This document shows positions 8,338-61,608 of a stretch of 64,000 nt of DNA, piece by piece (the first letter of the stretch is position 1; the number at the start of each line of letters is the position of its first letter). The notes beneath the pieces are model-generated. The model had not been told where the DNA came from and did no database searches. It was given only the letters and a program-made list of their open reading frames with translations. Source of the DNA: Catajapyx aquilonaris (Eukaryota); assembly GCA_000934665.2 (NCBI GenBank), contig KZ538005.1, positions 1 to 64,000 of the forward strand, in the 5' to 3' direction. The position numbers were made by a program, and so were the translations under genes.

Positions 8338-8667
8338 CAGGGTGTTTCAACATTTTTGTCCAAACAGTTATCGGAAAATTGACCGTAGCTGCTACTTTGT
8401 AAGCAGTGACTTGAAAACAGTGAATTTTCGGAGGAATGGGGAATATTCCCTGCGAATCGTAGGTTGAAGTGGCATACGTGCTGCCCGCTGAAAATTGAGG
8501 GTCGAGCCTGGAAAAAAGAGGGTCACACATGCCATGGGATGTGTGACCCTCTTTTTCCCCATTCCACATTCCTCCGACAAATCACCGGTTGCAAGTCACT
8601 GCTTACAAAGTAGCAGCTACGTGCAATTTTCCGATAACGGTTCGGACAAAAAAGTTGAAACACCCTG
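8338..8667. mobile_element. Tc1/mariner-type MITE, family A, copy 1
   Basis: Imperfect TIRs of about 100 bp (CAGGGTGTTTCAAC...GTTGAAACACCCTG). TA follows the right end; the left flank is CA. An internal hairpin reads aaaaagagggtcacacat-gccatggg-atgtgtgaccctcttttt. A second copy lies at 16147-16471. Confidence 0.93.
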
Positions 8668-11600: not shown

Positions 11601-11703
11601 TAAGGCTCGAAAATGAGTTAAGATTGTGTAATATGTACTAGTCCATGACACAGTTTAAAAAATAATAAATTATCAGTGAAATTAATTAAAACGAGTAATT
11701 TAT

Positions 11704-12102
11704 TCTTACCATTTATTTATTTATTTAGGGCCAGTTTCACCGAGCTCGGTATATGATAAAACCAGGGTTCTTTCGGAAAATCCCTACATATTTATATGGA
11801 TTTTCCTAAAGAAACCTGGTTTTATCATATACCAAGCTCGGTGAAACCGGCCCTTATACCCCATTGGGAGAATCGGCGCTCCATTAGGGGGATGGAGTAC
11901 CGCCATTGAATGGGGCCAAGGATAGGGAAGGAAGGAAGCGGCTGTAGCCTATTATACGGAAACAACCCCGGAATTATCCTGGGGGGGGGGGACCGTGGAA
12001 AACCACAGAAAACCACGTTCAGGGTTGCCTGCCCCGGGATTCGAACCCAGGACCTCCCGATTAGCAGTCGGGCACCTTAACCACCACACCAACTTGCTTC
12101 AG
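11704..12102 (-). mobile_element. tRNA-derived SINE, family F, full-length copy (interrupted by a MITE at its tail)
   Basis: Minus-strand head gtggttaaggtg-cccgaCTGCTAAtcggg-aggtcctgggttcgaatccc, with the B box at 12037-12047. It has a (TAAA)n tail. A 17-bp TSD with 2 mismatches flanks it: taaaacgagtaatttat at 11687-11703 and taagacgagtaatatat at 12103-12119. It is homologous to 18629-18813. Confidence 0.9.
11728..11853. mobile_element. PIF/Harbinger (Tourist-like) palindromic MITE
   Basis: A 126-bp near-perfect palindrome, GGGCCAGTTTCACCGAGCTCGGTATATGATAAAACCAGG...CCTGGTTTTATCATATACCAAGCTCGGTGAAACCGGCCC, flanked by TTA on both sides (11725-11727 and 11854-11856). Confidence 0.9.
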
Positions 12103-30800: not shown

Positions 30801-33800
30801 ACTTGCACTGCCAGAGGTATGGGTATGGAGGGACTTGCACTTGTGTCAGGGATGAATTATGTAAGGATGTCTTCAATTTTACAAAAGGAATGCCGGAAAT
30901 GTCATGTCACAGCGGCAACGCTGGCGAAGACCTCCAAATCTCTCGACCTATAGCCGTATGTGGTGATAAGGAAGGAATGTACGATATCATATAGCCTACT
31001 ATTGCCATTTATATACATAAAAATTGCGTTATTTTTTTTTCAAAGTCATTAATATGTCCTTTGTCTAGTGATATAGTGCAGGATTACATAATACTGCGTG
31101 TCTCCTTACTATTCCCCTATAAACAGTATTCTATTCTTGGCCCTCGCAGTGAATTATGCCTTTTAGATACAATCTGTCAACTCAGCATTAAAGCGCAGCT
31201 GACTCCTATGTTCTACCCCTGCTAGGTAAAATAGCTTCTAATTGTACTGCATAACAAAAGATGTCAGACTCTCCGTCAACTGTTGCAGGAGGCCTGGCAT
31301 CTATCGGACCTAAATGACAATCATCCACTTTTTTGCGCAATTTTTGAACACAAATTAATATTTGTGCAATATCTTCCGCTTAAGTAGTGGTTTATGCATG
31401 GCTAGCCCTAATGTGTATTTGACTCGTTTCACCTGCAAACAATAAAAAATGCATGCATCCGTACGATTGTCATTGTTCAGTATTATAGCCGTTTTGCACA
31501 ACCCCCCCATGAAAGTAGACAGTAGAAGAAACACGGAGGCTACTTCCGACACACATTTATTTGGCCAAACTGAGAAAGAAAGTTCGGGAAGTCAGCCATG
31601 AACAAGAGGCCACTCTTGTCTGAGGCTTTCCGAAACCTCTTATTACCCCTCCCCCATCCCCCCCCCCAAAAAAAAAACCCTCTTAAAAAAAAGAAGCGGA
31701 GGGTATTTGCTAAAGTTTGCAAGGAGTGAGAGGGGTGGGGAGAGGGGAAGCTCATCTGAATTTCAAAGGGAGCTTAATGATTTACACGATTTACATATCT
31801 GCGGAGAAATATCACCCCCTGACACGCCCCATTCATAAGGATGGAACGTTTCGTGCCTAACTAATTATTGCGATGCTTCATTGTGGGCACAACCGGGGGT
31901 CCCCAGTTTTTGCAGAATTGAGAAGTTTGCAGAAGGAAGCGATACAGCCATGTAATAATTTGCCAGTCTAATTGTTGCGGTTCGTGTACAAATGAGGTAC
32001 ATTCCTGGTGGCACCGCCTCCAATTGTTGGATTCTTACCTGACAGTGACCGATCAGCAGAAAAGGTTTAGGCGAAGGCGTTTAAGTGCCTGGGGCTGATC
32101 AGACCCCTTTTCGCCCCCTCCGTTTTACCCCCACCCTTTCCAGACGGTTACGTATAGTTGTGGTCTGTTCTTTGACAGAGGCAATTAGCGGTCAAGTGTC
32201 AGCATCGACCTCATAACTCACCTAGGTAATTATGAGGGCGCGTTATTGCGATACATCAAAGAGGGGGGACTCATTTTCCAGGCTGGGCTTGGGGACAACT
32301 TTTGCGAGTGTTACTCATTATCGTAATCAGGGGGTTGCAGTGCAAATATTGAAATGGCGAAAGAAGGAGGAATACAAGGAAACTATTGTGCTTCAACTGG
32401 GGCTAGGTCGAGCCAGAATCCGAATATTTACCTTCAGAACCGACCGTTACGTTATTTATAGTCCTGGCATATAGTCGGAAGGAAATCGATAAGACTGTTT
32501 ATTGTAGGGGCCTATTACAGAGCAGTTAGAGTCAAAGGCTCGTGGAAGTAATACGGGGACGGACGCCAAGAGGAGGGGGCTGTGCGTGATGATTACAAGC
32601 AATTTTTTTTAATTACCTCGCCATTTTTGCCGGCGGTTATCGTGTTTAATGCGGGCTTTATTAAGTGAAACTTGCATGACATGATGTCTGGATAAGAACC
32701 AGTCGCAAGGCCACAGCGAAAGAAATTACGGGACTGCCATTATTATGTGGTACGATTTTACTACCCGTACCAATACGGTACGGAATGCATTTGACGGTAA
32801 TGGCATTTTAGGGCATTGAAGCTAATACATTCAAGCACGCAGCACGTAGCGCAAGTACCATATTTTTACAGTCCGGTAGTTTAGAATTCCTGACGAGGCG
32901 GAAATCAATTGTCAATCCGAATTTATATAACCACAACTCACCTGATTGTTAATAATGTGGGAGAAAGTTGGCGTATCATTATTTTATATTTTTATTGTGC
33001 ATTATGTGGGTGAATATTGTTTCGACCATCAGAAACGATGCCTGCTTAAACCATTGCCATTATGGGCGAGATGCCTGTAACGAGTATCTCTTGAATGAAA
33101 AAAACTACTATTGTGTCGCATCTTTACCCCACAGGTTTGGGGTTTGGGGCTGCTTACCCCACCTTTAACCAGCAGCAGCACGTACCGAGAAAACAACATC
33201 GGATTTTCATCGACATCCAAACTTCTTGCACTTTCCCCGGAGGGAAAAGGAGGAAAGTGCTTGTTCGCAGAGGAGCATCTTGGCTGCTTTTCACACAGAC
33301 GGACGCCGCCATTTGGGCTCGTTTTTCACGCTTCATCCGGGAGCCGAGGACTCAATCATCGTTAAGGTAACAAAAAAAAAGAAGAGAATCAGCCATGGTG
33401 TAAAACGCATCGGGAATTCCCCGGCTGGACTTGCCAGACGGAGGAATTCGCGTGACGCAATTTTACTTAATGTTTTGCTTTACGCTAATTCCTGGAAGCC
33501 GGATTACTATCGGGTGGGACACGAAGGTGGGATTAGAAAATACTGCCGAAAGGTTTCAAAATTAGCGCCTATAAAAATAATACGGCTGTTTCTGGATAAA
33601 AATAACCGGCGGCTGCGTTATTTGCACGAGTCTGACTTTGACTTTTATAGCGTTTTTCATGATGTATACTTGTGAGAGTAATAAATTATTGTAAAAATGA
33701 GTTAGAGGTGTATCCCGAGTAATAGTGTGGCAGTGCGTACAGCATGGGCAAAAAGTTTCAGTAAAAAGAACGTGGTCTGTAAGGCTATACATTGCCATTC

Positions 33801-36650
33801 ATAATTTTAACGTCATTCTGTGGTTATTCACCGTAAGAGCCTGCAGGAAAGAAACGGTATACTGTGCGGTAGATTAGCGCATTAAAATTGATGAGAGTTT
33901 TATATCAAAATGCCGTCTGGCTGTAACTACTGGTGCTCCGGAGAAAATTTGTAGCCAGATTTTTATTGCCAGCACACTAATTGCTGAAAAAGTATGAGTG
34001 TAATTTTTTATGCAGTTTTTTGCTTATGTTTAAAAAATAAATTGTAGGTTATCAACGAATATGGCCATACACACTGGTAGTATAATATGTGCTTATATTT
34101 TACAAAGAAATGGAGGCGAGTTATGGTGCAATGAATTAATTTCAATATTGCCAATAATATTGATGAATTCAATTAACCAAATGATTCCATAGGCGATCGT
34201 TCCTAATCGCATTTGGTGACAAATCCACCTCGTAAGGCTCAGTTTCACGTCCTGCTGAATTCAGAAAATAAGCGGTGAGTACGTGCCTGTCTGGATCTAG
34301 ACGAAAAAAAAAGGACAGGAACCCAGCAACACTCCTTTTTCCACCTGCTTCAGCACTTTTTGAAAGAGTCCAAAAACCGTCACGCAGAGTCGATACTTGC
34401 AACCGAATGGAACCCGCCGAGTGGAAATTCAGGGACTTGTTACAATAGGACCCCCCCGAAAAAAATAGAAGAAAAAGAGAAAACGAAAAGAGAATCGATG
34501 CCGAGATATTGGCCACGAATGTCACATGCGTGCTTCTGCACCTGAACTCGCCCTAAGTTGGCTCCAAAAAGTGCAGTGTTTTCCCAATGAGGCCGCTTAA
34601 AATGGATGCACTCACCCCTGATTATTAGGCTGCAGCGAATTACCAACCCGCGGCCACATCTGGGCCTGCAATCTTTTTGCGTGATGATCGAAGCAATCTA
34701 ATGAAGGGGACGGAGGAGAGAGTGCGGAAAGGCTTTGGCAGAGCGTTTCTAAATTAATTATTGGCTAGGATGTGGGGGGAAGGGCCTGGTGCCATGTACG
34801 GTAACAAGTTGAGGGGGTGGGGGAAGGCGGGGTAGGGAAAAATGGCGAAGGAAATCGATGGCGATGCTAAATGAATGCCGTGACATTAGAAGGGGGCACG
34901 GATTCTTGCGAAAAACTCCGGATGGCAACACTGGACTGCCGAGGACCAATAGCAGCCGGTGTTGATTTGGCGGGAAACAGGCAGATTGGTCGGACGACGC
35001 CGCCTGGCTTGCCGGGAATCTTGCTTATTGGCCAACCGGTCGCAGTGTTGTCTTTATGGGTTATAACTATTTTTTAGTAGTCAGTTCACTGCTAGCCACA
35101 GTGTTCCAGACGGCGAAACTCTTAATATAGGCTATATTGTACGAGATATACCTAACTGTTCGGGCGCAATGATCCCGATTATGTGTTGGTAACCCTTCAT
35201 TATTACTAGGTACACTGCAATTCTTGGTGATTACACAGTGGAATCAGCCATTCTCTGACATCCTTGACCCCCATCCTTTCCACTTTCGCGAGCGGTGTAT
35301 GAATATCTCAGTATGAGCGATGTATATTTTAACGACTTCCTGCCTTTCGGATGTAGTTTCCATTGCGAGGAGGAAACGTTTCAAAGACGCTCACTTGACA
35401 GACCTATTTGCTAACGGGGAACACTGTAACGGGCTGCTGCGAGTTTAGTCATGGCAGGCCGGAGCAACGATTCCCGTTCGAGAAAGCGGGAAAATGGTCT
35501 CTACACCATAGTCTATATCCTTCCTAATTATAGCCGTTCAGATGTGTATTTTAGGCCTACACCTCAGGACTACATCAGCAATTTACTCCTCGTCGCTTAA
35601 CAAGCTCTTGAGTGGCGTTGTGGTTTTCTTTGCTCAAACAAATAGCTTTATTATGTACTGCGCGAAATCCTTACGCTTTCATTCATGAGGATTACGCGAT
35701 TTTGTTTCTTCTAGAGTCGGGACGTGATAAAATTTTCCGCGTGAAAATAATACGTTCGAGACATATTTTGCGTATGGAGCGACATGCCTGCACTGCACGC
35801 TACTATTTAATCACATTCTTCGTGAGAAAAAATTTGCCGGCCACACCTGTACGCGTAGCTTTCATTTACACGCCAGTAAAAATTGCCAGCCATGCATAAC
35901 TTATTTGAAAGCATAACAGTCTGCTACCGCAGTACTTTTTCTGTACTGCAAATGAGTGTTTTGAATGGTCAGTGATGCTTCATTCATTGGAACCACGAGG
36001 CATAAGATGTATTCCTACACTGCAGCGTATATGTGATCTAATAGGTAGACTGCAAACTTAATACATACATGATGCCTGTCCTGCCACTCAACTCTCCTGT
36101 ATCTGTCACGCGTTCAGCTCTTGCGAAACAGTCAACAACGCCACGTGCCACCTTCAAGTAAAATATGGCCTTTCTGCTCACGTTTCTATAATAGTCTAGT
36201 AATAAATTGTCACTCACTGGTAATGACTTGGCTCGTAATGTTACATTCTTGTAAGCGGCACACACGATGTACTTAATTCACCGCGTGCATTGTCTCGAGC
36301 AAATATTAACTCCTCGACATGTGAGCATTATTAGCCAACATATACGTTACCTCCCTTTGGCATTGTACATAAAGCGTGACTCTTCCTAAGAAACTTTGTA
36401 TTGGCACGTGCCGCCGCCGCCGTCCCTCTTATCGCGCCAAAATAAATGTTGACATTGTTGCACACCATGTACTGTAACACCCTTGCAATCAGTGGCTTGT
36501 CATCGTATATGAACTGGCACGTGCTGTCATGTACGAAAACACGTGCTGATTGTTGCCGGCCGCAATATTGTCTCCCTTGACAGCACGTGGCTTCCGAGTA
36601 ATAACACAGGGTTCCTGCTACATGCGATAGCAATGTTAATGTTGACTTAC

Positions 36651-36759
36651 CGGCCAGCTGGAGAGCCACGAGGAGCAGTAGGAGAGGCCAGGACACGCCC
36701 ACCTGGGCCACCACGCCCTCCGGAGGCCCCGCCGGTTGCCTCGGGGCCTCACGCCACAT
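36651..36759 (-). CDS. Probable first coding exon of a secreted or cell-surface protein (signal-peptide exon); whole exon 36762-36651
   Basis: The minus strand reads cccccccttttttattttgtttcttAG|acaATG: a long pyrimidine tract, an AG acceptor and A at -3 of the ATG. The exon ends ctggccg|GTAAGT, a consensus donor. The 109 coding nt give MWREAPRQPAGPPEGVVAQVGVSWPLLLLLVALQLA plus 1 nt (phase 1). It is GC-rich against the flanking intron and has the hydrophobic core WPLLLLLVALQLA. The rest of ORF 36331..36759 is intron read-through. Confidence 0.78.
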
Positions 36760-38432
36760 TGTCTAAGAAACAAAATAAAAAAGGGGGGGAGGGGTGGTCG
36801 GAGGGGGGTTCAGAAGAGGTGACCCCTACCCCTCTCACCACACGGTGTCCCTCATCGCCCCCGAGTTTACTACATGTGTGAGTCACATGTCACCCAGGTC
36901 TGACTCCGGAGGACCTCCGCCGCCTCCGAGCCCACAATCGCAACTGGAGGGACCCCCCAAAACCCACGCCAACTGGATCAATGTGCACCCCTCTCACCCC
37001 CTACCCGCCACTGCCATTTTCCTACCTGCACTCTTACCTCATTGGGCCAGAGTGGCGCTCCGGAGGCGCCGGCCCGGGGATATCCGGAAGATCTTGAGTG
37101 GAGGAACCCTTTTTTTTGGTGGGGGTGGAGATATACAATGGTGTCCCATTGTCTGGTTACGGGACGGGGGTGGGACAGGGCTTCGGGGGGGTCAGCACGG
37201 TTAATTCGATTGTCGGGTGAAATTAGTCCAAAAAGTAGGGTTCAAACTGAGGCACAAAAGATGTCAATCAATTTTTACTGGCCTGGAGGGATGTTTCCTG
37301 GAGGCGGTCAGCTGATGGCTACAAAGCATCCAGCCACAAAAATGGACGCGCAAATTTGGCTAACTCCGGCCAAAATGTTTTGGCAATGATATATCAAGGG
37401 TGCTTTTATTATTGCGGATGAGGGCTTTTCAGTATAAAAGGCCTTTATGAGCAACGTGTTTTAATTGGAGAAATGCATCACATATCTAGCTTACCCGTCC
37501 CCACACCCTGTATAATGACTAGCATTCCTTGAAATAGCTTAAATAGCTTTCCGACCATACTTGTGGCAACGTTCAATAAATCTCATGTTAGAAAACGAGG
37601 CGTGTTCCACTGAGCTGTCAATGCCGTCGTGTTTTATTCAACATGCCATTGCTGTCACGTTGAGGGTCAATATAGTGACAATGTCGTTTTCGTCAATTGA
37701 TTGCGACTGCCTTTAACATGCCAATATTCTGACGCTTCGGGAGAAGGATCAAAGTGGTCAATCGTTGTACCGCAAGAACCTTCACTCCTTCAGATTGGCC
37801 AAGAAGATAGATCAATAACTTGGTTGATTCATACTTGAAGTCAGAGAAGATACGTACGTGCCATGCGTTAGTTAAAAACCAGTTGGGCCATAATATAGTG
37901 TATAGTGAGGGTGTTTAACCCATGCGTATAGTTTATTGTGGTGATGGATTTATGTGGATTTCTACAGATGAGGTGTCAATCTGAATAATTGCAATGAATT
38001 TCTCATTAAGAATGGTATCATTGTCATCGTCAAAGATAGAACTGAATTTTGCAGGCCATAGTTGGCATAGTATGTTGTGAGTAAAGGAAACGGGATGATT
38101 CTCAGAAATTATATTAACAAATTACGCGGATTATATTAATAATGTACAGTGCATTAAAAAAGTCCATCCCAGACCTATACTGTTAAAATTTGTCATTATA
38201 ATTTGTGTTCATGCTTACTCTGTTGTGAGTCGGCAGGGATGTACGATGTGCACCCATAAATGGGTTTCCTGTTAATTTTTCACCAGCTATAATGAACAAA
38301 TATTATTGAACTGATAACTTATGCAGAACGATCAGAACCACATTTTGGTCAAATTTAAGTTAAGCCATGTGTAATACAATTTATTGATGTGAGCGCTTTG
38401 GCGCTCAAATCAGTCTTCTGATGGATAAATTA

Positions 38433-44580: not shown

Positions 44581-47500
44581 GCTTGATTTTGGGACAACGA
44601 CTACAATGTAAGGTTTCGTGCGCGAGAGTGACAGTGTCACTTGCACCTAAGTACAGTTCGTGCCAAGGCAACATTCCCAGTGCGAGGAAGTGGGAGGAGC
44701 AGGGTTGGCACGTGGCTCACGAAAACCGGGCATCACGTAATCCCCCCCGCCTCATAGTATGAAGTTCAAAGTCAGGGCCTGTAACGACAAGGCAATTTTA
44801 ATTTTATTTTCTACAATCCACGTCTGAGTCGAGTGAGGGGCAGTTTTGGGAATGGTTTCTTTGCATGCGGAGTCCGCATTTAAAGCCATCACGTTGCGAC
44901 ACCACCAGTCATTAGTTAAAATAACGGCCAAGTCTGAACTCGGCAGGCAGTGACTTCTGACTTCATCATCCACAAGTATCAATTACCCTGCCCGGGATAA
45001 CATCGAAGGGTAATGTGGGGGTCCCCCCTTACCTCCCCTCCTCCCTTCCTCCAGTCCTGACTTATGGTCTTGAGGAATTGCAAAAGTGATATTTGCCCAG
45101 CCGATAAAGGCCTGTGGGCTGGTGTCTATCACGAAGGTGCATCCGGGACATTTTCGTTTCTTTGCTCACGGAAGTCCAAATTGGACAATATTAAAGCACA
45201 GGGACGATCGTGGAATCATGGGGGAAGGAGGAGATTATACCGGACGGCATTTTTCTCAAGTTGGTCGCTAGCTGGCGCTGATGTTGGTTTAGGAAGTTTG
45301 TTCTTTGGAATAATAATGTATATTACTACTAACGGAAAACTACTTAAATAAATAATAAAGCGGAATTCTATCAAATATGGGCTGCATTGTTTTTATATGT
45401 ATGACGTAGTGCCTCATCAACAATTTTTCCAGGCGGTCCACCTAGGACAGTATGTGTGATTGTTCTTTTTCACGCAGGAGAAGCTAACAGGCCGAAAATT
45501 GATTGGGTTTGATTAACAAGTTTAAATATGCAGCGAAAACTATCAATAAAGCAGGGTTGATGAAGCGGGGAACTGGCAGTGGTGGTAATTACGCCATGTT
45601 GGTGCATAAAAGGAGAGGCTGACTTTTAGTGATTCGGGATGCTGATGAGCCTGACAGTCTCGTTGTTCATGCATGCCCTTGACCCAATATGGTTTCTGTG
45701 TGCTGTGCAGTACATGCACTTCAATAAAATAACTTTGAGGCTGATTTATTTAACGAGGTATAATTATTGCGTGAGTTGGGTCATCAGGGTACACTTTCAG
45801 CAATGTAGGTTCCTCGATTTTGTGCCAATGTTGCATCTTCATCATAATACTAATGTACGCTGAGATTATAAAATAAGCGAAATAATTTAGATATTTGTCA
45901 TCAATACGGGTTCTACTTTAAAATTGCTGTCATTTTTAAAAAATCTATTGGTTTACAATAATTAGTGTCGAAAATTGACATTATCATATCATTTATCGTG
46001 CTTTCAAAGTAGACAGGAACTATAAGATAAAGATATCCGGGCCGTAACTTTGATGAGGAAATCGAGCATCAAATTATTTCCCCAATATTAGGATGCGTTC
46101 ATTATGCGGCCTGAGCAGCCTGAGATAAGTCAGGCTTCTAAAGGTCATCCGCTTTAAATATCCGGCTGAAACATTTAAAATTTCATCAAATTGGGCCACC
46201 TTATGTGCATACTCCTAATCACGCCCCACTGTAAAAAAAACAGTTGTCATTATGCGTTCAGAAGTATGCAAACTTCGTGCGTGTACACAATGTGGAATCA
46301 TGCATGGCGGCAGCCACGCGGGCGGATACTCCAAACCGTAATGGGTCACTTTATGACCCTGTTCCAAGTGACCTCGTATCCTTTCTTCCTCCCACATGGG
46401 CAGCCATTGGCAGAGAAGGCCGATGGGAGCCAGTTCCCCGGAGCCTGCTTGCTATTTCCCTCTCCCGGATAAAACCCAGGGCGCTGCAACTTGGCTTTAT
46501 TCCTGGCACTCTATGTTGCACTTGGTCTCGTCGAGTAAACAACCCTTACCTTTTTTGTGTATGTGTGTTTCCTTCTCTCCTTTTTCCGGGCTTCACCACT
46601 CCCAAGCCGGTCCCCTAAACCCCTTTACCCACAATCCACCTCGACGAGATGAGGGTAGGAACAACGATTCGCAACCTTCTAAACAAAGGATGGCAAAAAG
46701 TTGAAAATTGCTGCCTTTCAGGTGGAGCCAAGTTCAAAAATGGGTTGGACTGTAATGGAGGATTGTGCACTTTTTATGGTTCATTACTGGGAGTCATAAC
46801 ACGATGTAAGCTGCAAAGAGGAGGGGCGTCGTTGTTGCTTCGAGGCGTCCTTAAGCTGCCTAGGTCAAGATTTTATCCCTACTGGGGCAGCAAAATGAAG
46901 CTAATTCTAATATGAGTTAGGAAAGAAATATAAGCATGCACGCATAGCTCTTGCTTTTAGTCATTATGTTATGTAACTTTTTGGAGAAATATATTGCAAT
47001 GATTGATCATGTAAGGATGGCACTGCAATATATTATAATGCTCATCAATTAGGCTAATTGTGTCTGCCATGTAGAAGTTAGAAACTAATTCAGCAGCCTT
47101 TCCTGCAAGATCTAAGAGCTTAAAACGTGAGCCAATAAAGACACCCCCTCCCTAAGCACCATAACTACTGAAAGTGATTTTGTGCAATAATCGTCCTCAG
47201 ATCAGAGAGTCTGAGCAAGTACCACATCCGACACCCAACAGCGATACATAATTGACCATCTTGGAAGCAAAGTGGGCGGAGAACCACACTGCCTTAGAAA
47301 CCGCTGCAACTGTAGGGTATCACGTAGTGCGACTCGAAACTTTTTGAATCCTGGAGGTTATCAGGGGTGAATAATAGATTCCAGGATGGGAGGAACAGTC
47401 ACTATGCAATATGCATTACTTGGCAGTCCCTTTTCCAGGCCAAACTTTTCTATTCCTGCGGGCAAAATGTGTTCGGCCCGCAATAGAAAAACATGTTCAT

Positions 47501-49384
47501 CTTCCCCCGGGCCTGAGAAAGAAAGCAAGTTTGACATATCCTTCTGACAACCCGAAGATTTCAAACGAACGGAATTCATTTATTCCATTGGATGAGACAA
47601 AAAAAAAGAGAGACAGTTTGGAAACGGGTCCACTTGTACCCCCTTTTTTCAGCCAATTTTTTTACGGGAGCCATTTGCCTGTCGGATGTGGACCGTATCA
47701 ACAGGAACGAGTCCCCTGCGAATCATACTCTTCTTTTAACTACTTTGGAAATAGTTTGTTTATTTCGTGCGGGGACGTGAGGAGATTTACCTTCAGCTCG
47801 TTGGAGGATAATTGTCGCCAGGTCTTGGTGCGGGTAATGGAATTAGAGTGGTTCTCTCTACCATCTTGCGGGACCTACTTGTTGACTCCCATTGCAGATT
47901 CGGATGTATCAAAATTCCTACAAAAAATAGCTTAATGGCTGAAATGTGTCACATTTTATGCTCTAAGAATCGCTCCATAGGCCGCCTAAACAGGTCGCAA
48001 AAGGAAGGAATCCTGGTCTGACAAGACCACCGTTGATTCCCCATACGTAGCTCGCATCTGGATCAATCAATCACCCGCTGATTTACTTCGTGTCAGGAGC
48101 GAAAATCTCAGCCAAGAAAAAGGACAGGGTAAGGCACTCAAGACTGTGTCTTTCGACGACATCCGGGAAGTTGGTTCAGGGGGGATGTTGGGGAGGTGGG
48201 GAGGTGGGGAGAGGAGGAGGGGAACCAGAAAAGACGGTCCTGATTCTTTTGCTAGGCTTGCTTTGTCCTTCTTCGACCTCAGACCCATTCATGTGGCAAG
48301 AGCACAAGAATAATAGGGGGTTCCCCGCAACTTTGATTCCTTTTTAATGACTGCGTATAATAGGTTGCCGAGTTAGAAGAGTGAGTTCCTTAATGAAAAT
48401 AAGGGTCGGGATAAGTCTGAGAAATTGATGGATTAAGAGTGTGGTTTATACATCACGCATGGGTGTCACGGATCACGTGTCTCTTTCCTGTGAAGGTGAC
48501 AAATGTTGGGTGACAGGTGCAGGCGGCTTAAGCGTCAAGTGTCGTCATTGATGAAGAGACGGATTGCGATTTTTGTTGAAGCCGTTTCTCCATTCACCTT
48601 TGGCACGCTATAGTGTATGGTAAAGACCTGGTCGTTTGCGTGTCAGCAGTATAATCAACACTCATTTCCTTGTTCGAATATTAACAGTTTTGCAACGACT
48701 TTTTGGGGACCAGTTGGTCTGGTTGAAGCTTCCTACCCCACCTCGATGTATAACTTTATATATTGTTGCGGAAAGATCTACGTGTGTAAGTCGGGGACTG
48801 GCTGTACTGTAGATATAGCGGCATTTGTATATACAAGTTATTTGCAAGCTATGTAGACTACTCTCGCTAGCAAAAGGATACAGACGGTTGCTTGTATAGG
48901 TTTGATCTTGTAGGTTTGTATACTGGGAGGAACTGAGGCGATTACAGTAATGGCATACCATAGTAGGCTACTGGATGTGACTAAGGGAACTCGCAATATT
49001 TCCGTGATTAGTAGCCTACATCTCTTGCTCTCGGTCATTCAAGTACTAAGTACAAGTAGTACTGTACAAGTAGGGCCTATACACACCATACATCGTCTTC
49101 GCAACACGGAAGGGACATTACAGTGGATAATAATATGAACCAAGGCCATGAGCACTCACTTCTATACGATTTAATTGGTTGGTAATATTAAAATTATTAA
49201 TGCTTCTTTATGAGGAAACTCGTGATAATTGTATGTGTCGATGCGACGCAGTTACTTCTTGATTCGTGTCCGAATGTTTGTCTGCAACAATGGTATAGTT
49301 GCCTGTGTGCTAGGTCAAATAAAATTATCTAGAACCACATGATGAGAGTCCAAAAACCCGCAGTTTTATGTCCACCTCCACAAT

Positions 49385-49800
49385 TTAAGACGTGTCACCC
49401 ACTAACGTCTGTTCCACAATGTCAGAAAAAATGAAGGGCCATATCTGCAAGTACTTGTTCAAATTGATCGTGTGGCTCCCTCTCACCTCTTCAGTCACTA
49501 AACTCACGCTCTTTGACCAAAGCACCTCGTCGAAGCCTAAAATGTCACGCAGCTCCGGACTGTGCGATTGTGCATGTGACACGAGCGGAAACTTGGTCCA
49601 TCAACCACTTTACATATGAACTCTCTGTTAGGCCATCCACTTCATTAATAATGGCATCAATAAGGTCTGCAACTGATTCGTATCTGCCCAGGGGTGGTTG
49701 TTTCAATGTTTTTTCACGCCTTTTAAAAATTCCAAAATAACTTATCTGATTTAAATTCGAGTGTATACGTAAGTTCAATTTTACGTAGCCTAACTCGGAA
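49385..49800 (-). pseudogene. Degraded fragment of a Polinton/Maverick (adintovirus-like) minor capsid/penton gene
   Basis: Two overlapping minus-strand frames join across a frameshift near 49560: PPLGRYESVADLIDAIINEVDG..VKWLMDQVSARVTCTI / SPELRDILGF..RGSHTINLNKYLQIWPFIFSDIVEQTLVGDT*. The motif order matches the Polinton penton pattern as I recall it (P-G-Y-ES-LI-AIN; SP-L-ILGF; DLN; [YF]-[SC]DIVE-VGD). Weaker matches flank it in shifted frames or after the stop (FRVRLRKIELTYT upstream, IVEVDIK downstream). Confidence 0.72.
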
Positions 49801-50861
49801 CCTTTTAAAAATTATACTCCTATAGTGTATGCGCGGTAGTGTACCCTATAGTCTACATCTGCACTGTCCTATATCCAGTTGAGGCCGTTTCTCGCAATTG
49901 CTGGAATTGTACGTTACCAGCAGTTACCAGTTCCGTAATTTTTAGCTCTTCTAAATTATTTTTTTGAGCATGTCGGAAATCTCATACGTAAGTCCAAATT
50001 TGCGTGTGTCTGGGCTACGTAAGACGGGGACTGCCTGCACTTTCTATCGCTCTTAGCCATGCTATTATTAAGTAATTACGCTACTTGTCATCGATGGGGC
50101 TTCACAATAGCGTACCGCATGATGGTAAACCCAGAACAAGTGGTTGATCCCACAAGATTAATGATTAATTCTGAGTTTACTATTGATCACACAACCGGCC
50201 TTCATTTGAAGCATTCTTGTTGTAAAGGTCAGCCAAGGTGCCCGCAAGGTGTAGTCTAATCAGGTGACCAATATCAAGTAAAAGTGCAAGGGGTTGCAAA
50301 ACGTTTTGTGTGCAGTGCGACTGTGGAGGGAAGCATTCGATCTGCAGTAATAAAGGCGTTGTAGGAAGCATAATGTAAACCTTTCCTATCTGATGGCAAA
50401 CCAAGATTGATGAGGCACAGGCGTAGTGGAACTGGCCGCAAAGGAGCACGATGCATGGGCCCATGCCTTTCCGTTTTCGTCCTTGACGAATGTGGAGGGG
50501 GGAATACGGGGACTACCTTTCTTCCTCGACCAACTTTGACCTTAGCCCCCACACAATGACTTAATGCCAACCTCTTCCGCCCCCATTGCAATACTGCATT
50601 TCTTTCTTTCGGGACTCCCGAATTTCCGGTCGCACCCTCCCTTCCTTACCTAGGGTCACGACACAAATTACTGTTTTCAGGTCCTTACATTTATATTCAT
50701 AACTGATGTTGACAACGCACGACACACTGCCCTGTTACCTGCAGTATTTATTGTCCTGCTTCGTAGGCACGACTCATGGCTTTCTCATCATAATTTTGTA
50801 ACAATGTCCTAATTGCAATGTCCATTTTTCATACATTCTAACCCATACCTGGCGTCTTATA

Positions 50862-51263
50862 CAGGGTTCGGAAATTCAGCCTACCGTCGCGTCGCTTTGG
50901 GAAATGATAGAGGGGTTCTAGGCGATCACTTTGAGTTTCTGCAACATGGTTCTCCGACGCATAGTTACCGAGACAATCAGCATGAAATAAAAAGTGAATT
51001 ATCCCAGCTTATAGGTTTCGAATACTGCTTACGATACTTCCATTCCCTAGGGCCCCAGACCAATAACGCCTTAAACAAAAATGAAAAAGGTAAGGTCGCG
51101 TGGAGGGATGCCTACATGCCAGGATATTTTACACATTGTGTTTGAAGCACATTATTTCGGTAACTATGCGTCGGAAACCCATGTTGCTTATATACTCAAA
51201 GTGATCGCCTAGAACCCCTCTGTCATTTCCCAAAGCGACGGTAGGTTAAATTTTCGAACCCTG
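50862..51263. mobile_element. Tc1/mariner-type MITE, family B
   Basis: TA|CAGGGTTCGGAAATT..CCTACCGTCGC..TTTGGGAAATGATAGAGGGGTTCTAGGCGATCACTTTGAGT ... ACTCAAAGTGATCGCCTAGAACCCCTCTGTCATTTCCCAAAGCGACGGTAGG..AATTTTCGAACCCTG|TA. TIRs are about 70 bp. Confidence 0.93.
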
Positions 51264-54200
51264 TATATAAGATACTGTACTTGTAAAGTTAGATATCTAG
51301 TCAATGTTAGTTCCTTGATTCTCAGGATTTTTCCGGCTAAGTCTAGCATATCTCAAAATAGTTTTTTGACAAGGAATTCTCCAGTCATGGGAAACACATT
51401 TAAGATGAGGGCATTCTTGGAAGGGAGTTTCGTTCTTTCCAACAACCCCCTCCATGCATCGTTGCGTGTCCCACCCCACTTGGAGAGCCGGGTGCTGCCC
51501 CCATAGAATCACAGGTAGAAAAAGGGAGCTACCAAAAAAACACACATTGCATAACTCCCGAGTTCCCGCTCGGAGACACTTGATTCGTTATTAACCTTTC
51601 TGGGCTGGCCTCTGGCCTCGGCCACACGCGATCATTTAGGCCCCGTCACGAAAGCCTTTTACATGTCAAGCCCTAACCTGCGCAGCTAAGACCCTGGCCA
51701 GCCAGACCTGCTCCGTATTCACACCCCCGGAAATCAATTAAGGCAAAAGCCCTAAGGTCATTCATGGCACCCTTTGTCTTTCCCGCTCGCCTTTCATCTC
51801 AATTCGTGTCTCTCGCTCGCAACCATTGGATAGGATAACTCACCTCTCACAAACTGACACTGCCTAATATATGGGGGGAGGGGGGGGGGTTTAGGACCAG
51901 CTTGCTGGGTCAACACGCACTTGACGATTGCGTTTTCACGCAGATATAAAGAGCAGTGTCGTCGTAAATATATCGTAGATAAACTGGCACCGGCGGATGC
52001 TACTCGTACTGATATCAAGCAGTAATAATGTGTTATAGAGCAATATTGCACCCGTTGGTTCTGTATATGGTGGCATGCAGAGAAATTCACTATGTAAGTC
52101 TGAAAAAACAGTTTTGAGATAACATTATCATTAAGCAGTTACTTTGAACAGTTTAATAGCTTATCAATGAGCACTCTCTGTAGGCTATACAGGGTTTAGG
52201 GTTTTAGGCACTGTACCTTGAGGACGTCTTGGCTTATTTTTACTTTCAAGGTGCAGAGAGCTGGTTGTCATTGATGGTAAACTAAGAACAAATAATTAAT
52301 CCTTTTTGAATAACATGGGATTAACCACTTGTTATGGGTTTACTGTCAGGTAACCGGGTCTCAAACGATACGTCAGCTTGTAGATTGTGAACCTATAGGT
52401 ATATACAGTGCACTAAGCCACGTTTTACGTGACATTTCCCGGCCATTTGTACAGTCATCATTTTCCGCGTATAGTGACGTTGAAGGTGGTGGCGGCTTTC
52501 ATTTCGGACAGGTCCGTCATGATTGCATCACGCGATGTGCACGTTGCATCGCAGTGTATTTTTGTGCGAGTTAACCGGGTAACCTAATCTTGTAGTACAC
52601 ATTAGATTGAAAATAACTTGTCAGAGGAGGCGTACAGTTTATGGGATATCGTACCGTTTCATAATCTTGGTTGAATGTGGCATACAAGTGAAATCAGACA
52701 AGTGACAGTAGTCTTATGTATAGGGCCTATCTATAAAACTGGAGCATTTTCATAACATCAAGTAAGCGACATTATTTCCACGAAAATCATTCAAGTTCTG
52801 GTTGATAATTCATCAAGAGAACGGTTAGTAAGGCTGTAAACAGCCGTTACTTTTAACTCCAAGTAGCGATTTAATCTGTGACTGACATGGTAAGATGGTG
52901 TCACGCAAACGCCACTTACTGCAGTAAGAAGAATATAGTGTTGAATCCCAAGTAAATGGAATTCAAATGTTAATACGATAAAAAAGTTACTCATAAAAAA
53001 GAACATACCATATTTATTAAATTATATGCCGCTTATCACACACATCCTCTCGGAAACGACACTTTCAGGTGTCAAATGCGACAGTTGGAGAAAAATAGTA
53101 TCAGCACTGTTCTGTCGTCACAAATGTCGCAGCTGATATTTTAATTAAATCATACTTAAAGTAACTCTGTTACATGGATGACATGCTTTCCTACTGATAT
53201 AATAATAGGCAAGGTTGTTGCTGTTGAGTAGAGAAGAAGACATCGGTAGTCAAGCCACGCCGCCACCAGATGTAGGTGTGATACGTGGCCTCGTCTCTTC
53301 TCGACTTTCCGCTCTTTCTCTTCCACTATGCACTAAATTAATCACAATGTGCTGTGTAACTTACATCTACGATACAAGGCACCATCTACCTGCTTCCTTA
53401 TATCGATCCTTTCATTCTCGTTCAGTCCAAGCTTTGATACTAAGTTCAGATCGAGATCCGGCAACGACTTTTGTTGGCTGTTGCCCGGGACTCTTTTGGA
53501 TTTGAAGAAGCCAAAGGTGGGATGGGTGGAAGATCGAATCCTTCGGAGCTGCTTCTCTTGGTATTTTTTCTCACCCAGAGCCAAGGTGTCTGCTCCCACA
53601 TTCTGGGGCTTCCAGATAATGAAGCCTTGCACGAGGGATGTTTGGAGGTCGGTGTGGGGGGATATGAAGGTGGGAGGGCTTGGCAGAGTTGGCGTCATTA
53701 ATTTCTTCGCCCGCAAATGGGATTTGGTGTGAGCTTTGGCGGCCTCGCACAGCCTGGCAATCACCGCCAGGTGCTGAAGGAAAGTGGGGGGTAAGGGTAG
53801 GGAGAGGAAGGGAGGGAAGGTTAAAAAATGGCCGCCTGCCTTCTACTAAACTGCAAGATATTCTCGAAGAATGTTTTTTTTTTTTTCCTTCGAAGGTGGA
53901 AGGGTGGGTGGAGAGTAGGGTTGGTTCTAACCGCACGCGAAGGTTGAAGGTTGTCGGCGTTTTGGTCAACGTGCGCAGTCAGTTCGGGTTTCGATTGAAA
54001 TCGCCGGGAGAAAACTGACGTCTGACAAGCTCACCCCAGCATATGCTTCTTTGCCACGCGAAGAAGGTCACAATTCTGTGAGGAAAAGTGCTGGGGGGAG
54101 ACTCTGCAGAAGAGAAAATATTCAGGTTATGGAAGGGATTCAGAATTCATATTTTGATGGATAATTCCAGCCAGCACTCGCTGGTGGCACGTTCGAGAAC

Positions 54201-55373: not shown

Positions 55374-55445
<72 letters not shown>
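55374..55445. repeat. (AAT)n microsatellite
   Basis: Perfect trinucleotide run. Confidence 0.99.
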
Positions 55446-55472
55446 TACATACATACAGTACATATAGCGACT

Positions 55473-55793
55473 TGTCTTCACTAAGGTGTGGGGACGTGAA
55501 AATTCAACTTTTGGAAGCTACTGTAAACTAACCTAACCTAACCTAACCTACCCTATACCGTAACTAACCTAGGCTGAGAAAAATGGATTATTGTGAAACC
55601 CTACAAATGAAAATAGTGGGGACATGTCCTCACTAATTTCGACATGTCCCCACTGTAATAGTACACATCACGGAAGAAAACTCTGTGGGGACCGAGAAAT
55701 GTCCCCGCAATTCGAACTGTGGGGACACACCCCACAGACGTCCCCACAGCTACAAAAAGCAAAAACGTCCGTCCCCAGACCTTATTGAAGACA
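55473..55793. mobile_element. Non-autonomous element with 24-bp inverted ends, an internal (AACCT)n tract and repeated GTGGGGAC/GTCCCCAC motifs
   Basis: The left end tgtcttcactaaggtgtggggacg matches the reverse complement of the right end tgtcttcaataaggtctggggacg at 22/24. aactaacctaacctaacctaaccta lies at about 55526-55550. Several gtggggac..gtcc(c/t)c(a/g)c stem-loops occur at 55616-55748. TACA-type simple repeats flank it. Confidence 0.8.
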
Positions 55794-57298: not shown

Positions 57299-59948
57299 AA
57301 ACAATCATGTTCTTCAAGGTACCCATCACACCTATAATCTTACATCTGAAAATAATGGTACATTTGCTAGATGAGGTATTTTCAGCCTGTTCAAATATTT
57401 AACTTCATGTCGCATTTCAGGCTTTCAGAGATACGGTAGAGGTTCATTTAGGGACAGGATTTTGGACGCTTGGTTATTTTCAGTTGCATCCGTTACAGCC
57501 CATAGAATGAGGTGTGGAAGCCCATTCTGTTCAAATAGGTTTGTCTGCATGTGAAGAGTCATTAGAGCTGCCCATAAAGCATACGGGCCTAATGGACTTA
57601 ATATTTCAGCATACTTCTGTCTCAGATTCCTCACTTTCCTCGCTTTCCTAATAAAACATTGAATGTGCATGGTAAGCAAATTCTAAAGATTCTTCCTTGA
57701 AATGACTGCCCAACCCTAATAATAGAGCATATAGGTGTTGCAATTAGTATTCCTCAGCAGTCTATAGGGTACCCAACCGTGCCAGATGTTCCCAAATTAG
57801 TAAATCCTAACAAGTTTGTCTGCAGCGTTGCCATTAGAACGACACCTATTAGGAATGAGGCTCTCAGGGCCTGGGGCGAGATCGCGTGTGGCAGCGGAGT
57901 GGCCACCCAGGGACCCACCAATCCAACACAATAATGGGGTCGGAGTGTTAGTCTAGTAGCAAAGCCACCGGAATGGAAAACGCTGATGAGACTCCCGCTG
58001 TGACCCGGTAATACAGACGGCCAAATTAATTCAAGAATGCTGCTCACTCGCGATTCAGATATCACTCCAATTTGCATGGGCATGGATCATCAAGTCTCAC
58101 CCTTTGTCTAGTGCTGCCCATCGTGGGAATGGCCGTGAAAATGCTCCAAATTTCAGGCTCATGTTTGGTCGGGGTCCAACACCGGTTAGGACAAAGCTGG
58201 AAGCCTCCTTCCAGGTCCCCTTCCTGGCGAAACTCCCAACAACGCCATCTAGTGGACGCGTGGGTAAAAGGTGATCCAAAATCGGCCATTTTGAGACCCA
58301 ATCTGTTAGGAGATATATCCGCAACGTAGTGCAGGTGCCTATATTCCTAGCCCACTTTTTAAAAACTTGCACTTTACCTGCGACTCCTGTATTAATAATG
58401 CCGTCCGCCATTCATCACCTTAGCACAATGCAGAGCGGAAATAATTTCTTCCAGGTGGCTCCCATTTCCTAAGCCGACTTGGAAAATTGCGGCAGGATCT
58501 CAAAACCTCCACGCTGATTTCCACCCATAAATCATGGCTCCCCAATCTGAGTAGGAGAGCCAGGGGGGTGAGATGGGAAAATTGGGTGTAGAACTAAGTT
58601 TTTTTTTACATCCAACTGTAGGTACAGTGCAAGTCAACAGTATGTATCAATTGAATATGTATGATTAAGATAGGCTGATTTTTTTGTGGAAATCTGCGCA
58701 GTGAGTCGGTACGGCATGAAATCGATGGGATTAGGCCTGAATGGGTCTCCCCCCGCATGTTTGAACTCTCATCCGGCGCTAATTTGGCGGCAGAGGTTGC
58801 TTAATTCGCCTACTCCATTGATTGGTTAAAGCTGGCATGTCCACACCGTAGTCTGGACCCCCTCACCCACCCACCTCCCGCCTTCCCCCACCAGCATCTG
58901 TGTCAATATTTGCCTCCAGCCGAGTGGGGAGGCCCCCGCTTTGGTACCAATTGTACCATTCTTGGAACCCAGAAGCCCGCTCAGATCGGGGAAGGAAAGT
59001 TCGCAGATGTGTTGGCCACACTTTTACATAACATTCAGGAGTTTCAGATTTACTTTAGTGGAGGAGAAAACTTCTGCTATTTGTTGTACGCGGGAGGGTA
59101 ATTAGAGTAATGCATTATCAATGTCGCTGGTGATGAACTGTATGGGGGAGTCGATATATTTACCCATTACAAACTAATTTGCTGCAAATTGCAACTGGAC
59201 AGTAATGGTCCAGGCACCAGGAACAAGTATATATTTTTGCTAGTTTATTGGGCTATAAAATAGCGTTGTTGATGGAGGAAAGTGGAGTAGGAAATAGGCC
59301 GATATTATGATGCTAGCTGTGGCAATCTACTGAATTAGGTGTTCAAGTTGTCATTGGGGAGGGCCTGGGTTTGATACCCTGGGCCAGGGTAGGGCACGTC
59401 GCATTGTCTCGTACACAGGCTCTTTAAGATTTTTTTTTACACGAGATTGCCATACTGTAGTTGATTTTGGCGAGGATAATCGCATGCCAGTTCCAGTGCT
59501 GTCACCCACGTGAATGGCGAGAAACATCATATTTATTCATATAATATTATAGGCAGTAGCTGGCATATCTATACGATCTCCCAAAAATAGTCTTTGTTAT
59601 TTATCAACTTCCTCTTCTGCCAGTAAAAGTTCAAAAACCCATCAAAATTTGGTACTTCAAAGTCATATCTATGGTGGTATCTAATGTATAAGGTCATAAA
59701 ATAATATAAGCATTAGGATACTACACTTCGCCATTTCATTTCCCTCTATCTTCTCCCAGCAGAGGCAGCATTCAGAAGTAACCATTATTTTGAGGTTTGG
59801 CTGGGTGCCTTCCCATTATTACAGTAGCACTGGATATGAATTACAGTCAACTTCTTTTCCATATGAGAGGGTGTAAATATAACACATTGTATGACTAAAA
59901 AGTTAGTCACCGTTCTGCAGTTATAACATTTTTTTGAATTTCTATATA

Positions 59949-60372
59949 CAGGGTGTATCTGAACTCAGTGCCCCGACATATATGACTTCCTTCCTAGCCA
60001 CCAGAGGATCAACTTATGTAGAGGAGTCATTATGTCTGGGAAGCCTCATTACTGCGATACACTCTTTAGCGATTTTTGCCTAATCGCTCCTTCTGACTTT
60101 TAAATAGAATTATCTGGTGTAACTAGCCAAAGAGGCCTTACCACCTGTGGGCAACAAGCCAACAAAGTCCGGCCCCCAGACCTTCCAGAGCCTTCTGACT
60201 GGGGGAGGGTTCGATGGGTGGCCTAACCGACAGGATATTTTGTACTACATGTTTCGGCCAATTATCTCAGTAATGCGGCGGCCATACATAATGACTCCCA
60301 TACTTAAATCGATCCTCTGGTGGCTAGGAAGGCAGTCATATACGTCGGGGCACTGAGTTCAGATACACCCTG
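59949..60372. mobile_element. Tc1/mariner-type MITE, family C
   Basis: TA|CAGGGTGTATCTGAACTCAGTGCCCCGACATATATGACTTCCTTCCTAGCCACCAGAGGATC ... GATCCTCTGGTGGCTAGGAAGGCAGTCATATACGTCGGGGCACTGAGTTCAGATACACCCTG|TA. The TIR is near-perfect for about 60 bp and imperfect beyond. Confidence 0.94.
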
Positions 60373-61608
60373 TATAGAGACGTTAAATTCTACTATTTCT
60401 GACACTTTATTACTTCAGTTATCGAATTTTACTATCACTACCACTACCACTGAGGCAAAAGATGTCACAATAAAGATGTTTCACCAATGTGCAACTTTCA
60501 AAAAAGTGAAAGGATCGGCGCATAAGTTTTGGTATTATTAGCTATATGATAAAGTAATTGATATTTTGAATAATAATTATGCATACAATGACGTTCGCAT
60601 ATTTATCTGATATGATTATGGTGTGACATCATCCAAATGGTAGGCCTAATAATAGGTGTCTCCTCTCAAAATTACATCGCGTAATTTTAAACAAATGTCA
60701 CCTTATAATGTTGAAGACATCCGGGCACGTGAATGTCAGACCAGGTGTAAAAAATTTTCTTTTTTACATTTACAAAACCAGCTCTGTAGGCATTGTTTGA
60801 GTCACCATAGTCGCAAAAATAAATAATGCCTGAATGCATGGGGTATCCTGCAAAAGTTGTGGAATGAGCCGGACTGTTCCTGAGTCCAGTACTAATGAAA
60901 TATTTTCATTTGGCGCCGCAGGTTGGGACTATCAAAAGAGCATACATTGTCTGTACCAACCCGATTCTTTGACCTCCCCCTCCCCTCTCCTCCCCTCCCC
61001 AAGCCCCGGAGTTGAGCAATTCAAACCTGTTCCCGTGTAAAACAGCAGTAAAGTGGCGGAGTAAATTTCACAGCCCCGACCGACTTAATTGAAATGTTGG
61101 GGAGGCATTGCGTAATTCCGCTGTCCTCTAATTACCGTCGGTGCAGCATAATTCAATGAAATTATAACGCCTTCCAGTGCGATGCAAAATGCACCGCAGT
61201 TGCACTGCAGGGAACTCTAATGTCCAGGGTGGAGTGAGAATAATAACCCCAGGCTCTCCCCTGCCATGCCCTCCACCCTCTAACCCTCCCAAAAATTCGG
61301 ACAGTCGCGGCCACCGGGTTTTAAGTGGTTGTTCTGGTTGTAGACCAAGCAGCACTCTGGGCCACGGGAATAAATCCAGGGGCCCTCGGTTATGAATTGC
61401 AACCTCCGGACCCTGTTTCCAAGCAAGTTAAGGCCGCACGGGACCGTTATAAGGACGCTTGCATAAATGAAGCCCGGCTAAAGACTCGGGAATTGCTTAC
61501 ACCCCTATTCATTATGCCTACCTTCTATATCTCAAATCAAGCTCAGTTTAATTTTTAAGTCGCAGGCATTATTCCATCAAGAAAAATGGTGGAAAGTAGC
61601 CTACTATA

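Follow-up and report, generated by a model that had tools for sequence, protein, structure and literature searches.

A probable fossil of a Polinton/Maverick-type penton gene, frameshifted and apparently rearranged, in 64 kb of otherwise non-viral DNA

The protein PX of Polintons was identified as their predicted penton, with an alignment, by Krupovic, Bamford and Koonin (2014, PMC4028283). In the rows of that alignment for Ciona, sea urchin, Xenopus and turtle, the N-terminal block reads LPSN.S..FP.N / WEVGL.EI.YP.SW.N. It is followed, in order, by G.Y.S...L...IN, ...L..ILGF and Y[ST]DI[VI].....VGD..PLLR, and the C-terminal block reads I.I.I..D.....F..GK....LHFR. Ancient, degraded Maverick integrations have been described in vertebrate genomes and dated by orthology across mammals (Barreat and Katzourakis 2022, PMC9683012).

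We compared these systems with a locus in a 64-kb stretch of DNA, the whole of which is referred to here as the window. By eye, the read-through of two minus-strand frames contains the middle three blocks of the four PX rows in the same order (GRYESVADLIDAIIN; SPELRDILGF; FSDIVEQTLVGDTS). The original prediction had placed the conserved motifs in their expected order, and the rows of the published PX alignment (Additional file 3 of PMC4028283) agree with it on visual comparison. Seen against the same rows, the N-terminal block (FP.N...F.T / VGL.E..YP.S..N) is in the window on the plus strand, and the C-terminal blocks are absent. Unlike an intact PX gene, the window has ~45% of the gene, with a probable further 18% on the other strand, and the sequence is frameshifted and terminated by a stop codon. 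Unlike Polinton elements, it lacks terminal repeats and is not linked to genes for a capsid protein, integrase, ATPase, protease or polymerase. Like the vertebrate Maverick fossils of PMC9683012, it would be an old, decayed fossil of a non-retroviral DNA virus in a host chromosome. We interpret the locus as a non-functional germline fossil (an endogenous viral element, EVE) of the PX/penton gene of a Polinton/Maverick-type, adintovirus-like virus, and we put the probability of this reading at roughly 0.92.

The first of the two frames (frame A) occupies 49548..49811 of the minus strand (stop-to-stop 49545..49811, 88 aa). Its homologous part, at ~49721-49560, corresponds to positions 70-126 of the penton (PX) profile described below and extends from GRYESVADLIDAI... 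through ...ARVTCTI. Upstream of ~49721, the frame cannot be reliably aligned as homologous sequence. The second frame (frame B), at 49388..49600 of the same strand (stop-to-stop 49385..49600, 71 aa), corresponds to profile positions 129-184. It spans SPELRDILGF through FIFSDIVEQTLVGDTS and ends ...IFSDIVEQTLVGDTS, and a minus-strand TAA stop codon at 49385..49387 follows straight after ...VGDTS, at profile position 184 of 252. The minus-strand overlap of the two frames (49545..49600) holds a +1 frameshift, frame B being +1 relative to frame A, and the profile alignment places the break near 49567. The homologous run comprises ~111 codons (49721..49388), in line with the original description of two minus-strand frames that join across one frameshift for ~110 aa and then stop. 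Joining frames A and B with an X at the break gave a read-through of 141 residues (P0003). Because 47 stop-to-stop frames of at least 110 aa occur in the 64-kb window, long frames are common in it, and the case rests on homology and not on openness.

Direct searches with the window fragments were unproductive. Pfam returned no family for frame A or frame B at E ≤ 10. Word-indexed protein searches (5.8 billion clusters) returned no match even at E ≤ 10, whether frame B was compared with longer proteins or the read-through P0003 with longer and near-length proteins. Only two matches came from an exhaustive phmmer search that compared frame B with 1.84 billion representatives: a bacterial MBG-repeat protein and a 1069-aa tandem repeat. 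We judged both to be spurious because these long repetitive proteins were matched in 3 and 7 stretches. An ESM Atlas lead (0.90) to unrelated DUF3684/DUF8348 fragment clusters was set aside, as its recognition was low (1298, with 95 of 256 features shared) and it was superseded by the profile. A search for related loci among viral contigs found none with frame B, and the same search with the penton of the reference contig L001 (see below) found L001 itself only. Given these empty direct searches, the case rests on the profile of motif-retrieved sequences.

We retrieved the reference family from public contigs, which we scanned for the PX motif by means of a degenerate DNA pattern. In IMG/VR, one contig matched the pattern (IMGVR_UViG_3300040792_000067, here L001), and in the metagenome collection at least 120 stretches did. 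Among the matches listed, 119 of 121 loci carry a relative of the L001 protein (tblastn, E ≤ 1e-3), where the 121 exclude L002, a duplicate of L001. Intact full-length penton ORFs were found in 33 of the loci among these matches, and ORFs with internal stops in 3 more. The family alignment (A1) comprises 31 of the 33 intact ORFs. We left out L011, which is short (213 aa), and L032, whose length and score are the same as those of L055.

L001 is 12.3 kb long, and its penton gene (8098-8865) is intact and encodes 255 aa. The genes on this contig are, in order, a 1157-aa polymerase-sized ORF, an ATPase, an integrase, the 255-aa PX-like gene, a small basic ORF, a 472-aa ORF and a protease. Pfam identified the ATPase (Adeno_IVa2 and Pox_A32), the integrase (rve+chromo) and the protease (Peptidase_C5, adenain-like). 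There was no Pfam match for the 1157-aa and 472-aa ORFs, so the names polymerase and major capsid protein are presumptive for these two, and we take them from size, position and motifs. Read in this way, L001 (1-12321) carries a near-complete adintovirus/Polinton-like gene set. Among the loci listed, relatives of the L001 integrase were found in at least 47, of the small basic protein in at least 49, of the capsid-like protein in at least 44, of the protease in at least 22, of the ATPase in at least 10 and of the polymerase-like protein in at least 9; these counts are lower bounds because many loci are shorter than 2 kb. Pfam annotation of 78 ORFs from 20 loci of at least 5 kb detected rve in 12, the A32/IVa2 ATPase in 3 and Peptidase_C5 in 2.

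Two further genes of these loci are of separate interest. A small Arg/Lys-rich protein (~130-180 aa, with a conserved QRGHGLGS.LGG.FRR) is encoded directly downstream of the penton gene in at least 49 loci. It is without a Pfam match and may serve as a core protein or condense DNA. The PC4 coactivator/ssDNA-binding domain (PF02229) is matched by an ORF at 1971-2513 (+) of locus L056 (E=4.6e-11) and, below the Pfam cutoff, at 11373-11882 (−) of L001 (E=0.0034). The PC4-like ORF may be an accessory gene of penton-bearing elements.

We assessed the identity of the family from a predicted structure. The AlphaFold2 model of the L001 protein, built with A1, is nearly all beta, with a mean pLDDT of 90.4 and a pTM of 0.81. 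Foldseek comparison of the model with the PDB gave 40 matches at E ≤ 0.001. The mavirus penton came first (6g41, E=5e-12), and the matches included Sputnik (3j26_N, 2.2e-7), adenovirus penton bases (~1e-5) and PBCV-1 (8h2i_bG, 2.5e-4). Matches in BFVD comprise adomavirus LO5, a MELD-virus 'putative penton capsid protein', a Drosophila-associated adintovirus protein and the mavirus minor capsid protein. The model shares the jelly-roll penton fold with mavirus (6G41/6G42), Sputnik (3J26), adenovirus (1X9T) and PBCV-1 (8H2I) at a Foldseek probability of 1.00, although sequence identity to these solved pentons is only 8-11%. The family profile had no sequence-level match among PDB sequences, and the family is therefore linked to the solved pentons by fold. 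Judged by this model, the proteins that make up the profile are genuine pentons. The single-jelly-roll fold that had been anticipated was found in the family representative L001; the window fragment itself is too incomplete to fold.

Both frames stand out when the window is searched with the family profile. In hmmsearch over all six-frame pieces of the window of at least 8 aa (n=4081), frame B ranked first (E=3.8e-5, profile 131-183) and frame A second (E=0.05, profile 63-126). The two are neighbors on the same strand and collinear on the penton profile. The read-through P0003 aligned with A1 in hhalign at a probability of 96.9% (E=1.9e-10) over 100 columns (query 35-140, template 74-185). This comparison of the joined frames with a penton profile had been proposed as the check on Polinton/adintovirus penton homology, and its outcome agrees with that homology. 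A frameshift-aware profile-to-DNA alignment scored 51.1 bits (profile 40-184, 49800..49388), whereas 94 same-length segments of the window, taken on both strands, had a mean of 15.4 (sd 1.9) and a maximum of 22.5. As the profile family had been retrieved by a motif that is partly shared with the window, we ran the test again with profile positions 75-165 alone, which exclude the retrieval motif. The fossil then scored 27.0 against a control mean of 11.0 (n=198). This motif-excluded control meets the objection only in part. In tblastn, 59 of 788 ORFs from the retrieved loci match 49388-49580. At the level of the sequence profile, the two frames match the Polinton PX (penton) family above chance.

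The frames could in principle be chance ORFs in non-coding DNA whose resemblance to the motif is coincidental, and the lack of a direct database match for the fragments and the commonness of such frame lengths in the window would both fit. Such a coincidence would have to produce a score ~19 sd above the controls, as well as 27.0 against a maximum of 17.2 once the motif is excluded. It would also have to place two adjacent frames on collinear profile segments and yield the hhalign E-value of the read-through. We regard its probability as close to negligible.

Compared directly with the L001 penton, the fossil has 24 of 72 residues identical (33%; BLASTP 34.3 bits, E=3e-7 for the pair), and the two have the SPEL.D.LGF and DIV....VGD segments in common. 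Unlike L001, where an intact 255-aa gene lies within a 12.3-kb viral gene set, the window has a lone broken piece. A source in some other penton-bearing lineage (adomavirus-like, a protist Polinton-like virus or a virophage) might be considered, since penton folds are common to these groups and the window has no linked polymerase or integrase by which to assign a lineage. We consider such a source very unlikely. The sequence matches a family that adjoins rve+chromo integrase and adenain-like protease genes, and its motifs form the series seen in the PX of Ciona, sea urchin, Xenopus and turtle, a series missing from the rows for mavirus, Sputnik and insect PX in the same alignment (PMC4028283).

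The reliable match covers profile positions ~70-184 of 252 (49721-49388, minus strand), that is, the middle ~45% of the PX protein. Profile positions below 75 add only 1.8 bits on the minus strand (49.3 of the 51.1 bits lie at positions ≥75), which makes a second frameshift near 49757 doubtful; it is possible but weak. The C-terminal third is normally the best-conserved part of the penton family, and its absence in the fossil is a weak point of our reading. The corresponding sub-profile (185-252) scored 13.1 against 49100-49387, a value that 60 of 414 controls reached, and no C-terminal third of the penton was detectable elsewhere in the 64-kb window. A tblastn extension to 49265 through two stops (E=0.026) was rejected as unsupported. 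Upstream on the minus strand (49760-50150), a search for the N-terminal part scored 9.5 bits, and 288 of 304 controls did as well.

There is no complete penton ORF of ~250 aa at the locus, given the frameshift near 49567 and the stop at 49385-49387, and we regard the minus-strand remnant as a pseudogene fragment and not a gene. No capsid protein would be made from it, and no current function is evident. Domestication as a functional penton-derived host sequence (an exon, a regulatory element or a small-RNA source) is highly improbable. Nothing positive speaks for it, except that the fossil shares its strand with a possible downstream gene. Against it are the frameshift, the premature stop, the missing C-terminal third and an N-terminus on the other strand, and a jelly-roll cannot fold from such a fragment.

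A probable N-terminal penton piece, FPCSNINSFATTF..VGLVEASYPTSMYNF, lies on the plus strand at 48665..48841, 550 bp from the minus-strand fossil. It aligns with profile positions 18-86, with the signal in 18-62. The plus-strand frame 48614-48853 ranked third of the 4081 pieces in hmmsearch (E=0.38, profile 42-85). In the frameshift-aware alignment the piece scored 26.8 bits, of which 22.8 fall in profile positions ≤62. No other site in the window scores as high with the sub-profile 1-62 (22.8 vs 19.9 for the next best). hhalign gave a probability of 61% (E=8.1e-5), and 16 penton queries match the piece in tblastn (best E=0.01). These alignments indicate that the N-terminal piece of the penton gene (positions 18-62, about 18%) probably survives at 48665-48841 (+). 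Were the match due to chance, the fossil would consist of the minus-strand middle fragment only. The hmmsearch E-value of 0.38, an hhalign probability of only 61% and a modest margin over controls that reach 22.0-22.5 with similar-looking alignments leave some room for this. Yet none of 114 controls reaches 26.8 (maximum 22.5), the best N-terminal site in the window lies less than 1 kb from the main match, and the 16 penton queries match it. We therefore consider a chance match unlikely, although it deserves to be kept in mind.

With its N-terminal piece on the opposite strand, the remnant would be rearranged as well as truncated. The signals of the two pieces are complementary (positions ≤62 on the plus strand, ≥75 on the minus strand), so that the simplest reading is one gene split by an inversion of ~1 kb. 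The complementary profile coverage would place the inverted segment at 48842..49800. On this reading, one end of the ~1-kb inversion would fall within the gene (profile ~60-75); two independent fragments would look similar. Polintons often insert repeatedly, and the pieces might be remnants of two Polinton copies, or of nested insertions, instead of one inverted gene. The nominal profile coverage of the pieces does overlap (positions 40-184 and 18-86), and no breakpoint signature was found. However, the real signal is complementary (≥75 minus vs ≤62 plus), no more than 550 bp separate the pieces, and there is no further penton, capsid, integrase or polymerase remnant in the 64 kb. We hold an origin from two copies to be doubtful, though a serious contender.

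The two-piece layout is present in a single Logan contig of ~10.1 kb in each of four sequencing runs, with no differences; the four runs come from one sample of one study, and this sample may be the source of the assembly itself. The occurrence of the layout within single Logan contigs excludes a scaffolding artefact and does not constitute independent support. There was no RNA run among the sequencing runs listed as holding the stretch. The depth of the contig at the fossil equals that of its flanks. An episomal genome, as of an exogenous adintovirus, is not what we find, as the fragment lies inside the ~10.1-kb Logan contig and within 64 kb of otherwise non-viral DNA.

We searched the window for other genes of the presumed element. 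Six companion-family profiles gave no significant match in the six-frame translation of the window; the best (E=0.039) was of the small basic protein at 9616-9714, 40 kb from the fossil. Comparison of the 788 ORFs with the window by tblastn produced no consistent match beyond the penton pieces, and Pfam found nothing above cutoff in 150 of the 172 window frames of at least 78 aa. The absence of pPolB, integrase, ATPase, protease and major capsid remnants, as originally reported, therefore holds for the window in profile, tblastn and Pfam searches. Several weaker candidates were rejected. A CAS_C Pfam match at 33565-33798 (−) was weak, and comparison with solved structures gave no confirmation. 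The match of the small basic family at 46308-46421 (+), with a best E of 0.004 among the 788 queries, is short and compositional. PX-like chains at 60323-60645 (+), 55379-55513 (+, a run of Asn codons) and 16234-16051 (−) scored 22.0-22.5, at the top of the chance distribution. The first of these chains aligns with profile positions 73-181, including YCDII..QMVG (22.4 bits), and might represent either noise or a second penton fossil in a far more advanced state of decay.

No terminal inverted repeats, which together with a target-site duplication would mark the ends of a 15-20-kb element, flank the fossil (30000-64000, inverted repeats of at least 40 nt), again as the original prediction had stated for Polinton TIRs. 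Without companion genes or flanking repeats, the fossil is isolated in non-coding DNA. The earlier reading of an isolated, deleted endogenous viral element is thus supported by a profile match in a window that holds no other Polinton remnants. The only inverted repeats of at least 40 nt within 30000-64000 are two local palindromes. The first (50890-51240), of ~350 bp and 1.1 kb from the fossil, has arms at 50890-50936/51194-51240 (98% complementary) and 50941-50996/51132-51187 (80% complementary) and looks like a foldback or MITE-type transposon. The second (59934-60387) has 106-nt arms that are 89% complementary and 242 nt apart, and is probably another small foldback element. Rfam had no match in the window, and no tandem repeats were found at 46000-53000. 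The open frame at 36334-36762 (−), which had previously been noted as an exon, includes a signal-peptide-like stretch (WPLLLLLVALQLAG) and has no Pfam match; as originally suggested, a 5' intron of its gene may contain the fossil. Runs of N (assembly gaps) occur at ~23.2 kb and 62.0-62.2 kb and are seen as runs of X in the translations.

The history that we propose for the germline fossil has four steps. An element of 15-20 kb would have integrated via an rve-type integrase, and nearly the whole of it would later have been lost by deletion. An inversion of ~1 kb, with one breakpoint inside PX, would have parted the N-terminal piece from the middle. The remnant would since have decayed neutrally.

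Degraded Maverick/Polinton fossils are common and well documented in animal genomes (for example, in the vertebrate integrations of PMC9683012), so the fossil is real but ordinary. On its own, it changes nothing in the understanding of Polinton/Maverick elements. With it, the record of Polinton/Maverick (adintovirus-like) viruses infecting eukaryotic germlines gains a further datable fossil, which also illustrates that very short, frameshifted capsid remnants, missed by Pfam and by direct protein searches, are recognizable with a family profile. Its value would rise only if the host lineage is thought to lack Polintons, or if orthologous copies permit dating. As a long shot, the locus may be the last trace of a Polinton/Maverick lineage in a host group whose intact elements have died out or gone unreported or, more boldly, its middle piece may have been kept because it feeds a small-RNA or transcript-based antiviral defence of the host. 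If it is indeed such a last trace, the inversion that split the gene would be a rare shared-derived marker with which the integration could be dated across species.
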